Source of the DNA: an uncultured Verrucomicrobiae bacterium
GTDB taxonomy: Bacteria > Verrucomicrobiota > Verrucomicrobiia > Chthoniobacterales > Chthoniobacteraceae
Direction: 5' to 3'
NCBI GenBank assembly: GCA_963769025.1
Contig: CAVYKI010000003.1
Span: 992,001 to 1,056,000 of the forward strand
DNA length: 64,000 bases
Below are positions 411 through 40,615 of the stretch, in pieces. Numbering within the stretch: the first letter of the stretch is position 1; the number at the start of each line of letters is the position of its first letter. Position numbers and translations under genes: made by a program. The notes under the pieces were generated by a model. That model was not told the DNA's origin. It made no database searches and saw only the letters and a list, made by a program, of their open reading frames with translations.

Positions 411-457
411 TGGCTGCGGACGATACGCGAGCGGGCGGAGAAATGGCGCGCTATTTT

Positions 458-541
458 GTAGCCGACGACGGCAGGAGGCGGGCACTTTGATGTTTCGTCC
501 ACACGGAAAAGATCAGCCCGCCTCCTGCCGTCGGCGGCTAC
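458..541. repeat. REP doublet (REPIN-like), GTAG family type A
   Basis: GTAGCCGACGACGGCAGGAGGCGG ... CCGCCTCCTGCCGTCGGCGGCTAC inverted pair in the intergenic gap; near-identical arms recur at 11653-11791. Confidence 0.8.
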
Positions 542-585
542 GAATGTTGCCAATTCCGCCCGCTTCCCGCATCGTCCGCCATTCC

Positions 586-2388
586 ATGCCGAAGCCTTTC
601 TTCATCACCACCGCGATTGATTACACCAACGGCGCGCCGCACATCGGGCATGCGTACGAAAAGGTGCTCGCCGACGTGCTCGCGCGCTATCACCGGCTGA
701 AGGGCGACGAAGTCTTCTACCTCACCGGCGTGGATCAGCACGGGCAGAAGGTGCAGCAGAGCGCGGAGAAGGCGGGCGTCGAGCCGCAGGAATTTGTGGA
801 CGGCATCACCGGGAAATTCACCGCGCTGTGGGAAAAGCTCGACGTGAAATACGACGCGTGGGCCGCGACGACGGACCCGCTTCACAAGGATTGCGTGCGC
901 GCGAATCTGCAAAAGCTGTGGGACGACAAGGATCCCGCGACCGGGCAGAGCCGGTGGATTTACAAGAAGACGCAGCGCGGCTTTTACAGCGTGCGCCAGG
1001 AGCAATTCCTCACGGACAAGGAGCGCGGGCCGGACGGGCAGTTCGGCCCCGAGTGGGGGCAGGTCGAGGAGCGCGACGAGGAGAACTTCTACTTCCGCCT
1101 CACTCAGGCGCCAGCCGCGCCGGGGCAGGACCCCGCGACCGGCCTGCCCGGCTGCGACCCGAAGCAGTGGCTGCTCGATTTCATCGACAAACGAAGCGCG
1201 GACGGAAAGCCGTTCGTCGTCCCCGATTTCCGCGTCGCCGAGTTGCGCAACGCGGTGGAAAAACTCGAAGGCGACCTGTGCATCTCGCGCCCCGCGTCGC
1301 GGCTGAAGTGGGGCATCCCCTTTCCTGAGAGCTTCGGCGAGGGCTTCGTCACCTACGTGTGGTTCGACGCGCTGGTGAACTACATCAGCTTCGCCCCCGG
1401 CCACGATACGGATTTCACCGCCAAGACGCCAAGGCGCCAGGAAGACGAAAATTCTTCCCCGCTTGGCGTCTTGGCGCCTTGGCGGTTCAACGATTTCTGG
1501 CCGCCGCTCCACGTCATCGGCAAGGACATCCTCATCCCCGCGCACGGCGTCTATTGGCCCATCATGCTCAAGGCGATGGGCTTTGCGGATGAGGAAATGC
1601 CGACGCTGCTCGTGCATGGCTGGTGGAACATCGCCGGCGCGAAAATGAGCAAGAGCCTCGGCAACATCGTGGACCCCGACCTCCTCGCCGACAAATACGG
1701 CCCCGAAGCACTGCGCTACTACCTCATGAGCGACATCGCCACCGGGCGCGATGCGGACTTCAGCGAGGAAAGGCTCGTCAGCTCTTACAATGCGGCCCTC
1801 GCAAATTCTCTCGGAAACTTGCTCAACCGCTCGCTGAGCATGGCGGGGAAGTATCGGGAGGGGCGCGTAGTGGATGCGAAAGTGAGCATCCCCAGCCAAA
1901 GATTAATTGTAGGGCAGCAACCGGACCCGGTAGAAATCTCGGTGCCTCCGGCTGGGCAAGACATCATAGATTTTCGCCGAGAGATTCGATCACAATGCAA
2001 CATCTACCCGACGGCGATGGACCATTTTCAAGTTCAGCAAGGGATCGCAGACGCGCTCGATATTGCGCAGCGGTGTAATCGGCTCATTGATGATGAAGCT
2101 CCTTGGAAACTGGCCAAAGACCCGAAGCAAGCTGACCACCTCGACACAGTCCTCTACTCGCTCGCCGAATCCCTCCGCATCATCGCCATCCTGATCTGGC
2201 CGGTGCTGCCGGATGCGGCGCACGGGATTTTTGACCAGCTCGCCTGGAAGCTGGACGAGGCCGGCAAGGACACGCGGTTCCGTCTCGCGGATGCGGTCTG
2301 GGGCGGTCTGCCGGACGGGCATGTGCTCGGCAAACCCGTCCCGCTTTTCCCGCGCATCGAGGCTCCGGCTCCGGCGGCGGAGAAGTAA
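586..2388 (+). CDS. metG: methionyl-tRNA synthetase
   Basis: FITTAIDYTNGAPHIGH (HIGH), YVWFDAL, IGKDI and KMSKS motifs, plus an anticodon-binding domain ending PLFPRIE. Start taken at ATG 586. Confidence 0.97.
   Translation: MPKPFFITTAIDYTNGAPHIGHAYEKVLADVLARYHRLKGDEVFYLTGVDQHGQKVQQSAEKAGVEPQEFVDGITGKFTALWEKLDVKYDAWAATTDPLHKDCVRANLQKLWDDKDPATGQSRWIYKKTQRGFYSVRQEQFLTDKERGPDGQFGPEWGQVEERDEENFYFRLTQAPAAPGQDPATGLPGCDPKQWLLDFIDKRSADGKPFVVPDFRVAELRNAVEKLEGDLCISRPASRLKWGIPFPESFGEGFVTYVWFDALVNYISFAPGHDTDFTAKTPRRQEDENSSPLGVLAPWRFNDFWPPLHVIGKDILIPAHGVYWPIMLKAMGFADEEMPTLLVHGWWNIAGAKMSKSLGNIVDPDLLADKYGPEALRYYLMSDIATGRDADFSEERLVSSYNAALANSLGNLLNRSLSMAGKYREGRVVDAKVSIPSQRLIVGQQPDPVEISVPPAGQDIIDFRREIRSQCNIYPTAMDHFQVQQGIADALDIAQRCNRLIDDEAPWKLAKDPKQADHLDTVLYSLAESLRIIAILIWPVLPDAAHGIFDQLAWKLDEAGKDTRFRLADAVWGGLPDGHVLGKPVPLFPRIEAPAPAAEK
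1417..1486. repeat. Palindromic octamer-unit element inserted in frame in metG
   Basis: ACCGCCAAGACGCCAAGGCGCCAGGAAGA ... TCTTCCCCGCTTGGCGTCTTGGCGCCTTGGCGGT, flanked by GATTTC at 1411-1416 and 1492-1497. Confidence 0.85.
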
Positions 2389-2471
2389 ACGCGTAGACGC
2401 AGAGACGCAGAGAAACATGTCAGGCTGACACGTTTTCTGTCCGCACCTCCGCGTCTCTGCGTCTCCGCGTT
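2388..2471. repeat. Palindromic octamer-unit element (ACGCAGAG)n ... (CTCTGCGT)n
   Basis: AACGCGTAGACGCAGAGACGCAGAG ... CTCCGCGTCTCTGCGTCTCCGCGTT directly after the metG stop; same architecture as the element inside metG. Confidence 0.8.
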
Positions 2472-2546
2472 TCGACCATTTTCACCAGCGGGGACTGGCG
2501 CTTCCGCTCGCGGATGATGGCCGGGAGGGCGGCGGGGCTCCGCAAG

Positions 2547-11580: not shown

Positions 11581-11652
11581 AGCGGGTAGGGTTGTTGGAA
11601 AGGGACGCGATTGATACGTGAGCGTAATACCTGTGGCAATGGCTTTTTCTCC

Positions 11653-11791
11653 GTAGCCGCCGACGGAAGGAGGCGGGCTGTCCGAATGGCGAGCAACGAA
11701 TGGCCGATGGGGCGCTAAATGCCGCAGGCCGCAGGCCACCTTCGTCATTCACCATTTTTTGATCAGCCCGCCTCCTTCCGTCGGCAGCTAC
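11653..11791. repeat. REP doublet (REPIN-like), GTAG family type A
   Basis: GTAGCCGCCGACGGAAGGAGGCGGGCTG ... CAGCCCGCCTCCTTCCGTCGGCAGCTAC, a long near-perfect inverted repeat. Confidence 0.85.
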
Positions 11792-11841
11792 GGATCAACG
11801 TGCTTGGATTCCAGCCGCTCCGCCGATCATCCTGCCCCGTG

Positions 11842-38171: not shown

Positions 38172-39182
38172 TCACGGGCGCGCGAGCGATCCCAACCGCC
38201 CGGCACGGGCGCTCACTGCCGTGGCTGCCCACACCACTGCCAGCAACGCGGCACCGACGACCGCCATCGCGGCGGCGATCGAAACATCCAGCCACAGGCC
38301 GATGTGCATCCCTATCACCGCGCTCAGCGCGGCGTGGAGCGCGGAAAGCGCGAGCATCGCGGGCAGGCGGCGCGCGATCAGATACGCCGTGGCGCCGGGA
38401 AGGATGAGCATCGCGACGACGAGGATCGCGCCGACTGCGCGGAATGCGCTCACGACGACGACCGACAGTGCCGCCATCAGCGCGTAGTGGACGAGCGCGG
38501 GGCGCATGCCGAGCGTGGCGGCGAGCGCGGGATCGAATGTCGTGACGAGCAGCTCCTTGTAGAAAACGGCGATCAGCGCGAGGACGAGCAGGCACACGAC
38601 GGCCATGATCACCACGGACGACGGCGCGGCGGCGAACAGGGTCGCGGCAGCGGGGTTGCCTTCCATGCTCACGAGCGCGAGTTCGCCGAAAAGCACGCAG
38701 TCGGCGTCGAGGTCCACATGCCCGGCAAATCCGCTGATGAGCACGACGCCGAGCGCGAACATCGTCGAAAACACGATGCCCATCGCGGCGTCCTGCTTGA
38801 TGCGCGAGTTGCGCTGGATGATTTCCATGAGCGCCGCAGTCACCAGCCCCGCGCCGAGCGCGCCTGCGAACATCACGAGCGGGCTGCGCGAGTCTGTGAG
38901 CAGAAACGCAATCGCGATCCCAGGCAGGATGCTGTGGCTGATCGCGTCGCCGACGAGTGACATGCGGCGGAGGACGAGGAAATTTCCCAGCACGCCGCAC
39001 GACAGCGCGACGAGGAATCCCATGAGCACGACCCAGCCCCAGATGGAGAAGTCTTCAGTCCACGGAGCGACGACGATGCGGTGCCAGTCGAAAGGCGGAA
39101 GCGTGAGAAGTGAGACGTGAGCGGTGAGACGTGAGAGGTGCTCCACACCCGGACCGCTTACGATTTCAGAAAGGCCAATCAT
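38172..39182 (-). CDS. Mn/Zn/Fe ABC transporter permease (MntD/TroD-like)
   Basis: LRRMSLVGDAISHSILPG, DLDADCVLFGE and VGAILVVAMLILP motifs. Confidence 0.92.
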   Translation of the reverse strand: MIGLSEIVSGPGVEHLSRLTAHVSLLTLPPFDWHRIVVAPWTEDFSIWGWVVLMGFLVALSCGVLGNFLVLRRMSLVGDAISHSILPGIAIAFLLTDSRSPLVMFAGALGAGLVTAALMEIIQRNSRIKQDAAMGIVFSTMFALGVVLISGFAGHVDLDADCVLFGELALVSMEGNPAAATLFAAAPSSVVIMAVVCLLVLALIAVFYKELLVTTFDPALAATLGMRPALVHYALMAALSVVVVSAFRAVGAILVVAMLILPGATAYLIARRLPAMLALSALHAALSAVIGMHIGLWLDVSIAAAMAVVGAALLAVVWAATAVSARAGRLGSLARP

Positions 39183-39205
39183 ACTTCTCACGTCTCACGT
39201 CTCAC
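39103..39205. repeat. Heptamer inverted repeat (GTGAGAC)x5 ... (GTCTCAC)x3 spanning a gene junction
   Basis: Five GTGAGNN units at 39103-39137 and three complementary units at 39185-39205. Confidence 0.85.
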
Positions 39206-40615
39206 GTCGCCGCCCACCCGCGGGATCTCCCGCCCGTGCGGATCGCGCTCCGGGAAATCGAGCCGCTGTTCGAGTTCGCGCACGGTTTCCTCACCGAGCA
39301 GGTGTTCGATTTCCTCCGCGTCGTCGTGGACGTGGTCAGTGCGGAAATTGGCTCGCTCGGTGAGGTACAGCTCCCACAGGCGGTGGTTGCGGATGACGGT
39401 GCGCGCGACACGCATACCCTCGGGCGTGAGGCGCACCTCGGGACCTGCAATCGCAAAGCCGTGGCGTGTGAGCGCCGAGGCTGCGCGACGCGCGTTTGCG
39501 GGCGAACTGCGGCTGCGCGCGGCGAGTTCGTCGCACGAAACTCCGTCGCGCTGGAAGCCGCCATGTTCGAGCACCTGGTAGATCGCCTTCAGTGTGTTTT
39601 CCCGTGCCACGCGACGGCGGCGTTCGCGTGTGCGCCACCAGCGCGCGAGCACGCCGTGGCGCGGGGCGAAAAGGAATGTGACTGCGAAAATCGCCGATGC
39701 TGCGAGCACCATGCACGGGCCGGTGGGAAGGTTGCTGCCGAGGAAGGACACGAACGCGCCCAGCCCGCCGGCGAGCATCCCGAGCAACGCAGAGAGAATG
39801 AGCATCCGGTGCATGCGGTCGGTGAGCAGATACGCGGCAGCGGCGGGAATGATGAGCATCGCCGACACGAGCACCGCACCCACGGCTTGCAGCGCGACGA
39901 CGACGGCGGCGGCGAGCAAAAGCATGAGCAGATTGTGCAGCAGCCGCACGGGCAGTCCGATGGTGCGGGCGAAGACGGCGTCGAAGCTCACGGCGAGGAA
40001 TTCCTTATAGAACAACGCAAGGATGAGCACCGTCGCGCCGGTCGTCGCGGCCATGAGCGCGACATCGCCGCCGCCGAGTGCCGCTGCCTGGCCGAAGAAC
40101 ACGCTGCCGATGCCGCTCTTGTCCGCGCCGGGCAGGCGCTGGATGACGCCCATGAGGCAGAGGCCGATGGCAAAAAACACCGAGAGCACGATGCCGAGCG
40201 CGGCGTCCTCCTTGAGCTTCGTCGTGCGTGTGAGCCAGCCGGTGACGAGTGTCCCGAGCAGCCCCGCGACCGTCGCGCCGATGAAAATGGCGGCGGGATC
40301 CTTGGTCATCTTCCACAAAAATCCGAGCGCAACGCCGGGCAGCACGGCGTGGGAAAGCGTGTCGCCCACGAGCGCCATCCGCCGCACGACGAGGAACGCG
40401 CCGAGCAGCCCGCAGCTCACGCCGAGCAGCAGCGAGCCCGCGAGCGCGAGCCGCAGCGACGGATCGCGGAAGGTGAAGAAGCGGAGCGCCTGTTCATAGG
40501 CATTGCTCCCGACGACATCGCCGATGCGGGCCGCTTCCGCCGGAACGGCGAGGAGGACGAGCAGCAGGAGCGTCGCGCCGAATCCGCGGGTTCCCGGAGC
40601 ACCTGCCCTTTTCAT
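39188..40615 (-). CDS. Metal ABC permease fused to C-terminal DtxR-family repressor domain
   Basis: VRRMALVGDTLSHAVLPG permease, then ENTLKAIY, LTPEG, RNHRLWELYL, HDDAEEIEH and DPHGREIP. Confidence 0.92.
   Translation of the reverse strand: MKRAGAPGTRGFGATLLLLVLLAVPAEAARIGDVVGSNAYEQALRFFTFRDPSLRLALAGSLLLGVSCGLLGAFLVVRRMALVGDTLSHAVLPGVALGFLWKMTKDPAAIFIGATVAGLLGTLVTGWLTRTTKLKEDAALGIVLSVFFAIGLCLMGVIQRLPGADKSGIGSVFFGQAAALGGGDVALMAATTGATVLILALFYKEFLAVSFDAVFARTIGLPVRLLHNLLMLLLAAAVVVALQAVGAVLVSAMLIIPAAAAYLLTDRMHRMLILSALLGMLAGGLGAFVSFLGSNLPTGPCMVLAASAIFAVTFLFAPRHGVLARWWRTRERRRRVARENTLKAIYQVLEHGGFQRDGVSCDELAARSRSSPANARRAASALTRHGFAIAGPEVRLTPEGMRVARTVIRNHRLWELYLTERANFRTDHVHDDAEEIEHLLGEETVRELEQRLDFPERDPHGREIPRVGGDVRRET

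Follow-up and report, generated by a model that had tools for sequence, protein, structure and literature searches.

Selfish repeats that lie in frame in essential proteins are a textbook curiosity whose examples come mainly from Rickettsia, and cyanobacteria have heptamer repeats that go by the name of STRR. In this article I discuss a hairpin element that sits in frame inside metG, the gene for methionyl-tRNA synthetase (MetRS), in a 64,000-nt stretch of bacterial DNA (the window, to whose positions plain coordinates refer; it equals G000:C3:992001-1056000, where G000 is the source genome, a 5.34-Mb, 13-contig assembly with 64% G+C and a completeness of 83%). I will argue that this element is probably a gene-less miniature of a cassette in which hairpin arms enclose a small GxxExxY gene, that it entered without a duplication, that it persists by virtue of its frame, its lack of stops and a tolerant loop, and that it is read through as 23 residues. 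The closest described systems, which are characterized here from the available portions of the papers cited, each share some of its traits. The Rickettsia palindromic elements (RPEs; Ogata et al., 2000, by way of the reviews PMC10969869 and PMC3733652) are in-frame palindromic repeats of about 100-150 bp in housekeeping genes, with a conserved peptide for each family. Intragenic repetitive extragenic palindromes (REPs) of the GTAG and CGTC types have 5-13-bp stems and are most numerous in R. conorii and in Opitutus terrae, a member of the Verrucomicrobia, which has the highest intragenic count of the GTAG type, the type that is associated with RAYT transposases (Di Nocera et al., 2013, PMC3733652). 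Xanthomonas genomes carry GGGAATC heptamers of unknown origin in arrays of about four units, often as convergent stem-loop pairs and mostly intergenic, and the cyanobacterial repeats are mentioned alongside them (Rehm et al., 2015, PMC4692102). Finally, Coxiella 23S rRNA contains an intervening sequence (IVS) with an S23p open reading frame (ORF; PF05635), and RNase III removes this IVS from the rRNA (Warrier et al., 2016, PMC4990558).

Like the RPEs, the metG element lies in frame inside a housekeeping gene and adds a peptide at a position probably compatible with the fold, while other copies of its family are intergenic; going by the published descriptions, it differs from them in its length of 70 nt, its arms of tandem octamers, its unconserved loop, the rarity of in-gene copies, of which there are three, and the arms that it has in common with the GxxExxY cassette, and its host is a free-living Chthoniobacteraceae-like bacterium, not a Rickettsia, the source name Chthoniobacteraceae being attached to two close MetRS hits. 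With the REPs it shares the phylum and the presence of palindromes inside protein genes, which in their case add about 20-30 residues and sometimes occur several to a gene (PMC3733652), whereas it has no GTAG or CGTC tag (its tips read AACCGCC...GGCGGTT) and its arms are 23-26 nt of reiterated octamers. As for a RAYT link, G000 has a single Y1_Tnp gene (PF01797; one match, C9:555357-555686, E 8.5e-12, within a 349-aa frame), and no tandem-unit hairpins were seen by eye in the ~650-800 nt on each side of it. The Xanthomonas repeats are similar in that arrays of 7-nt units stand in convergent pairs (PMC4692102); there, a single G-rich, quadruplex-forming unit is found per genome and is under-represented in coding DNA, and neither a gene partner nor in-frame copies are reported in the available part of that paper, whereas G000 has many unit families side by side and three in-frame copies. 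The Coxiella IVS provides yet another likeness, as a selfish hairpin insert, with or without a small ORF, in an essential gene whose product is not destroyed, and PF05635 genes occur between tandem-unit arms in G000 as well. However, the metG element lies in the coding region of an mRNA and not in an rRNA helix; excision would destroy the mRNA, and therefore the insert would have to be read through by the ribosome. Among the titles and abstract openings searched, with most subscription journals outside the search, I found no published MetRS case, no insertion site shared by several families and no description of a tandem-unit hairpin or GxxExxY cassette class.

The element in the MetRS loop

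The metG gene is intact, its product matches Pfam tRNA-synt_1g (E 2.4e-78) and has MetRS chains as its nearest solved structures, and the protein (P0001) has a single match in G000. A sequence-only reading of the window had described a 70-nt inverted repeat of 8-nt units with an inner GGAAGA/TCTTCC stem, placed in the open metG frame with YVWFDAL on one side and IGKDI on the other, flanked by GATTTC at 1411-1416 and 1492-1497, 81 nt apart, and followed after the gene by an intergenic element of the same architecture, and every one of these features is present (Table 1), although the element after the gene is built from a different unit, ACGCAGAG. Each arm of the metG hairpin is made of three tandem octamers, and the inverted-repeat arms at 1417-1439 and 1464-1486 are 23 nt each, 91% complementary and spaced by 24 nt. 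Folding of 1405-1500 as RNA gives a minimum free energy of -54.2 kcal/mol compared to -27.3 +/- 3.2 in 200 shuffles (z -8.4), with 0/200 shuffles folding as stably. The hairpin proper amounts to 23 codons (T278-R300) and not 27 as initially counted, and its arms, like every other arm inspected, are stop-free in all frames, three octamers being 24 nt or 8 codons. The hairpin behind the gene has 26-nt arms (2387-2412 and 2447-2472) that are 92% complementary (-47.1 kcal/mol, z -6.1), and its ACGCAGAG arms also bracket a GxxExxY gene in the congener G015 (L073). In Rfam no family reached its gathering threshold, the best match over 1415-1493 being a generic miRNA-precursor model at 20.7 bits versus 58, and a terminator or promoter role was rejected, as a scan of 300-2800 gave 0 sites.

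Table 1. Features of the metG locus in the window, family copies in the urease operon of the source genome, and repeats found at the metG loop in genomes of the genus.
Feature	Position or place	Strand	Details
metG, methionyl-tRNA synthetase, 600 aa	586..2388	+	ORF, translation, Pfam, structure model
In-frame hairpin element, CGCCAAG octamer family (T1)	1417..1486	+	codes T278-R300, TAKTPRRQEDENSSPLGVLAPWR
Hairpin left arm	1417..1441	+	A + CCGCCAAG, ACGCCAAG, GCGCCAGG
Inner stem and apical loop	1440..1458	+	GGAAGA 1440-1445 / TCTTCC 1453-1458; 7-nt apical loop 1446-1452
Hairpin right arm	1462..1486	+	CTTGGCGT, CTTGGCGC, CTTGGCGG + T
Left GATTTC	1411..1416	+	aligns with CAC TAC / AAC TAC codons (ancestral) of same-hairpin relatives
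Right GATTTC	1492..1497	+	D303-F304 codons of conserved F-N-D-F-W-P-P; also in relatives without the left copy
Intergenic hairpin, ACGCAGAG octamer family	2387..2472	+	directly 3' of metG stop
GTAG-tagged REP-like hairpin (GTAGCCGACGACGGCAGGAGGCGGGC...)	455..544	+	upstream of metG; distinct repeat class
Family copy	between ureA and ureB
Single family arm	between ureB and ureC		start (MNRQDAKTPR) of 139-aa GxxExxY gene
Full family hairpin	after GxxExxY gene, urease operon
In-frame family hairpin	inside ureC		right arm read as LGVLAPWRF, exactly as in MetRS
CGCCAAG hairpin at metG loop	G000, G018
GCGAAG hairpin at metG loop	G010, G003, G032
GGATGAA hairpin at metG loop	G001, G015
CGAAGGA hairpin at metG loop	G004
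CAGTCAC one-arm array at metG loop	G002, G009, G035
CTCAACY one-arm array at metG loop	G033

Comparison with other synthetases supports the view that these residues are an addition. The spacing from WFDAL to IGKDI is 57 aa here versus 43-44 in the shortest congeners and 39-47 residues at 13 readable loci of other genera; Y266-W305 spans 38 residues versus a median of 16 (range 4-40) in an alignment of 110 distant MetRS; and gaps face the two arms of the insert in 9shc, the nearest solved MetRS. An alignment of MetG with its relatives, which had been proposed as a check, finds the insert missing from several close ones. The accompanying claim that removal of the insert gives a loop of normal length holds in one respect, since the 11 residues that the removal of 27 codons leaves in Y266-W305 are inside the range of distant MetRS, and fails in another, since they are below every loop read in its own clade.

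The idea that GATTTC represents a target-site duplication lacks support. The two copies sit 1 and 6 nt off the stem ends, 0/6 full copies of the family have a direct repeat abutting both ends, in G018 and G003, which share the hairpin, CACTAC/AACTAC and an additional 9 bases take the place of the left GATTTC, and the empty site of the urease gene ureC in 14 relatives (described below) indicates a plain insertion with nothing duplicated. These same observations bear on whether the element is a classical MITE, a miniature transposable element with inverted repeats, that a DDE transposase moves and for which GATTTC would be the duplicated target site. Terminal inverted repeats are certainly present, and so is a 6-nt direct repeat near both ends, for which I calculate a chance of ~0.09 within 24-nt flanks; because the repeats are non-abutting, the left GATTTC is missing in G018 and G003, and the empty ureC site lacks a duplication, a DDE-type MITE is nevertheless very improbable, and among longer units the GxxExxY cassette alone was seen to have these arms, no search having been aimed at arm-bearing insertion sequences.

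How the enzyme accommodates the insert can be considered with an AlphaFold2 model built from 124 sequences, which has a mean predicted local distance difference test (pLDDT) of 91.0, a predicted template modelling score (pTM) of 0.92 and a TM score of 0.91 (target-normalised) to T. thermophilus MetRS 2d54. In the residue blocks of 271-300 the pLDDT falls to 76, 71 and 65, while the flanks have 96 and 95, and because of this drop and the gaps in alignment with solved structures, the insert probably occupies a surface loop. Both the WxDAxxxY helix and, through its histidine, the HxIGKDI strand border the methionine pocket in E. coli MetRS, and the insert must therefore bulge out between two elements of the pocket. 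The insert peptide is weakly constrained, as P0001 shares 83-90% of its core with the 6 other T1 carriers but 48-55% of its loop. The statement that the element creates new protein sequence in an essential enzyme is borne out as far as the reading frame goes and no further.

Three further regions of MetRS variability were encountered along the way. At window 1850-2150 (metG residues ~425-475) the G+C content is 0.54 versus 0.60-0.75 elsewhere in the gene, and the corresponding part of the anticodon-binding domain is unalignable among relatives that are 70-80% identical elsewhere (A1 columns ~660-760) and has pLDDT values of 54, 46 and 60, making it a second hypervariable patch in an essential enzyme, with no hairpin found there. 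At window 1100-1160 (metG ~175-190) the 7 residues QAPAAPG are present in some relatives only (pLDDT 55-71). At a second MetRS site (A1 columns 309-342), the protein P0019 has an insert …QDSQDLQD…NPIHPANPENP… whose halves, on a peptide reading only, resemble CAGGATT-type palindrome arms, much like those that flank the GxxExxY genes of L072, L074 and L075.

It could also be asked whether the insert is an assembly artefact in a long-read metagenome-assembled genome, considering that at least one conserved gene (ureC) is frameshifted, that completeness is as low as stated above, and that none of the indexed public sequencing runs contains the source strain (best share of words 0.32). However, same-family inserts occupy the same site, at the same codons, in the independent assembly G018 and in proteins of 6 clusters whose sources are ena, jgi, ncbi and lgn, the frame stays open and such palindromes are regular in the genome, leaving this explanation with next to no credibility. 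In four public runs, contigs from relatives match both flanks with other letters between ('skips 91, 70 letters between'), and one relative's metatranscriptome contig spans the site with 70 other letters (X15 record 10), from an RNA library that may contain DNA.

Dispersed copies and the GxxExxY cassette

The pattern CGCCAAGNCGCCAAG has 18 matches at 7 loci in G000, and this two-unit pattern is found in 14/30 genus genomes (G000 included) while its reversed control yields 0-1 hits per strand per genome, so a dispersed palindromic repeat family, as suspected from the window alone, does exist. Its arms are conserved (AACCGCCAAG RCGCCAAG RCGCCAAG ... GGCGGTT) and its loops are unrelated, and the tips (G)AACCGCC...GGCGGTT(C) are present in 6 copies. 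Scanning the genome for intragenic in-frame copies, another of the checks proposed, added two to the one in metG, namely in ureC and in a DUF1549/DUF1553 protein. The urease operon (G000:C3:614114-617208, outside the window) contains four CGCCAAG-family copies (Table 1), and the one in ureC can be compared to empty sites: it is absent from 14/14 relatives with a readable loop (36 or 40 residues versus 66; 15 relatives were matched and one locus without an anchor match was left out), and comparison with the empty site places ~91 nt between GAA and TCCAC with nothing duplicated. According to my reading of the sequences, a 1-nt loss a few bases downstream of the insert restores the frame; the ureC frameshift in this assembly lies at ...EGAGGG|HAPDII... 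and is either an assembly error or the mark of a pseudogene. A GxxExxY gene adjoins ureC also in G016, G007 and G034.

A gapless scan for hairpins with arms of at least 18 nt and at least 85% complementarity returned 215, of which 57 have a 7-9-nt arm period, and when these were placed relative to ORFs with my own codon-usage gene finder, 29 were intergenic, 19 overlapped ORF ends and 9 were inside ORFs. Coding-like flanks on both sides are seen in 4/9 of the latter (metG, ureC, the DUF1549/DUF1553 protein and C3:290312, where inspection by eye points to a chance repeat instead of a tandem-unit hairpin); in-frame copies are therefore rare, as expected if selection removes most in-gene insertions. 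The DUF1549/DUF1553 (PSCyt2/PSD1) protein (C2:19749-21755) has an in-frame 164-nt hairpin of CGCGGAA heptamers (C2:21037-21200, -125.8 kcal/mol), and tblastn finds other, shorter palindrome-like or one-arm segments at this site in the orthologues of G001, G012, G014 and G004, unlike the ureC site, which has no varied occupants. Insertion of hairpins into hairpins as a general habit in G000 was rejected, as a 7-9-nt array in the loop of 2/122 other hairpins (controls 0/244) is too few, and stem strand asymmetry (G-U versus A-C) over 6 copies revealed no consistent bias.

What gives this repeat family a possible partner is its association with GxxExxY genes, which as PF13366 genes are found in 28/30 genus genomes. 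The gene at C3:616455-616039 is the only PF13366 (PDDEXK_3) match in G000 (E 3.9e-41) and the only tblastn hit, with one family arm as its N-terminus and a full family hairpin following it (Table 1). When 30 GxxExxY loci, that of G000 included, were analysed and compared to displaced windows of the same size from the same loci, inverted arms of at least 16 nt and at least 80%, reaching from the start region to beyond the stop, were found at 22/30 loci versus 11/54 controls, and arms of at least 21 nt and at least 85% at 19/30 loci (by my own tally) versus 0/54. The bracketing arms are arrays of 8-9-nt units, and they include families that are familiar from elsewhere: the AACCGCGAAGGAGCGAAG arms at the GxxExxY loci of G032 and G018 belong to the family that G010, G003 and G032 carry in their metG loops, and the CGCAGATT arms at the GxxExxY locus of G017 are matched by regex at 17 loci in G000. 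The PF05635 four-helix-bundle genes with tandem-unit arms in G000 number three, and the one at C3:901 has an arm-ORF-arm-loop-arm layout like that of the GxxExxY gene. The metG element thus exhibits all three features of the cassette class, i.e., inverted arms made of unit arrays, arms that elsewhere enclose a GxxExxY gene, and dispersed gene-less copies.

Other repeats were also observed. The PF05635 gene at G000:C13:20330-20981 is preceded by ~200 nt of GGAGAC-rich tandem repeats and followed by six GAGACGGG octamers and a hairpin. A predicted ORF start is overlapped by the hairpin at window 39114-39208, which is built on a GAGACGT-like heptamer and has arms of 26 nt with 88% complementarity. 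The GTAG-tagged REP-like hairpin upstream of metG has a counterpart at 11650-11794 (GTAGCCGNCGACGG.AGGAGGCGGGC ... inverted), and such hairpins have unrelated loops and many copies genome-wide and form a separate class.

Varied occupants of one loop

The metG loop was read at the DNA level in 23 genus genomes, and an inverted tandem-unit hairpin, of one of four unit types, is present in 8/23 congeners, a one-arm heptamer array in 4/23 (L005, L012, L081 and L083) and no such repeat in 11/23, while a hairpin is found at 0/13 readable loci of other genera. At the protein level, the loop could be extracted from 117/120 related proteins, resulting in 77 unique loops that I sorted by my own regex labels into 15 classes, ~12 of them repeat-derived. 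Arms of at least 7 aa that a DNA palindrome could encode occur in at least 25/77 loops versus 1/77 shuffled, and arms of at least 6 aa in 44 versus 9, and the left junctions vary within about six codons (ER|TAK, ER|MKDEG, PH|KKDEG, PD|WKCEGG and PN|AERG).

Such diversity at one site raises the possibility that the hairpins are of local origin, produced by slippage of short units and templated copying between arms, in which case the 'families' would be the outcome of in-situ concerted evolution and not of insertions. The arms are indeed microsatellite-like, the one-arm direct heptamer arrays occur at the very same site, the CGCCAAG and GCGAAG types are joined, one base change at a time, through the hybrid arms of G003 and G032, and two sites (metG and the DUF1553 gene) have different hairpins in different species. 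However, these 25-nt arms, complete with their tips, are found again at 6 further G000 loci and around GxxExxY genes in other species, ureC has a copy whose insertion is clean and recent, and the units at the metG site (CGCCAAG, GGATGAA, CGAAGGA, CGCGGAA...) are mostly unrelated to one another, with some matching families dispersed in the genome, all of which makes local origin unlikely as the general explanation.

It is also conceivable that the structure or the peptide is selected, either as a useful hairpin (for instance by making translation pause between the two halves of the catalytic fold or by controlling mRNA stability) or as a variable surface, and is kept or renewed for that reason. 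Consistent with this, a repeat-derived insert is found at the loop in 12/23 congeners, palindrome-compatible arms far exceed the shuffled expectation given above, and the arms of G000 and G018 stay complementary though the loop peptide has diverged. Yet the congeners without a repeat and all 13/13 loci read in other genera do without a hairpin, sequence, length and exact junction are all unconserved, the same families are mostly intergenic, and the Rfam matches are sub-threshold and generic with no terminator-like site, so that selection is an improbable reason for the presence of these inserts.

The turnover of occupants can be followed in part on a tree of 117 MetRS cores, where the loop class changes 55 times compared to 73.7 (minimum 67) with shuffled labels; because support is at least 0.9 at 40/107 nodes only, the classes are regex labels and recombination would blur the tree, this event count was set aside and well-supported sister pairs were used. 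The pair P0003/P0002 (support 1.0, distance 0.028) has different loop occupants, a GCGAAG hairpin in P0003 and in P0002 an 83-aa non-palindromic insert that is helical by eye and has no Pfam family beyond the MetRS domains, and different occupants are also found in P0013/P0011 (1.0, 0.047), P0027/P0017 (1.0, 0.159) and P0107/P0037 (0.99, 0.124). The neighbouring codons in sister pairs differ too (FNDFW versus FAAWW), and exchange of a patch by homologous recombination therefore fits as well as replacement of the element.

The preferred explanation and its meaning

Taking these observations together, the explanation that I consider probable is as follows. The full form of the element would be two arms of 7-9-nt unit arrays enclosing a small gene of the GxxExxY / PD-(D/E)XK fold, whose protein may have a role in the spread of the arms. 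A gene-less copy with three CGCCAAG octamers per arm would have arrived, as a mobile or copied element, between the WFDALxNY helix and the HVIGKDI strand of MetRS, without duplication, and would survive there because its arms are stop-free (three octamers being a whole number of codons), its total length keeps the frame and the loop tolerates the residues. The ribosome would then read the insert as 23 extra, poorly ordered residues from an mRNA carrying a -54 kcal/mol hairpin, and in related lineages the MetRS loop would have received new insertions, or exchanged its occupant, many times over. I think that the insert is neutral or slightly costly ballast and not an adaptation of the enzyme.

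Several points weigh against this explanation. The arms of the metG hairpin match the GxxExxY cassette of the same genome in 2/8 hairpin-bearing genomes (G000 and G032), in a weak comparison with one or two cassette loci examined per genome. The low copy number (7 loci) and the unrelated loops are unlike what a plain copy-and-paste MITE would predict, and gain or loss of the metG copy has not been caught within a population. The copy in ureC is weaker evidence of tolerance in a working protein because that gene is also frameshifted in this assembly, and the metatranscriptome contig places only a relative's insert in an RNA library, translation of the metG insert being predicted from its frame. 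The arms of G003 and G032 (CCGCCAAG or CCGCGAAG, then CAGCGAAG + CGGCGAAG) look like gradual conversion between 'families', and because of them some hairpin change evidently happens in place. More generally, recurrent hairpins at one site could mean selection for structure or in-situ evolution of the arms.

A bolder proposal is that the MetRS and DUF1553 loops are landing pads for an active, structure-directed exchange of hairpin cassettes, in which the GxxExxY PD-(D/E)XK nuclease would plausibly cut the extruded hairpin and repair from another hairpin copy would swap one family for another. I regard this as doubtful, though worth stating for what would follow from it: an essential enzyme would bear a fast-turning, lineage-specific surface segment, the system would be homing-like and aimed at DNA shape, not sequence, and it would explain near-identical MetRS alleles that differ only in this loop.

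The gene-less miniature that I favor would extend in-frame selfish repeats to a different class of element and to a free-living soil and freshwater lineage, and controlled counts from one genus connect this class to a small uncharacterized gene of the nuclease fold. Also, unlike the RPE reports in the portions available, it points to a span of some six codons of an aminoacyl-tRNA synthetase that has collected roughly a dozen unrelated hairpin families, with sister alleles less than 5% different elsewhere carrying different loop occupants. This would provide a natural and countable system for asking whether hairpins spread by insertion, replacement or in-situ evolution and how much junk the loop of a catalytic domain can bear. 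For those who annotate genomes, the hypervariable 'linkers' in otherwise conserved enzymes of the Verrucomicrobiota may be translated repeat DNA.

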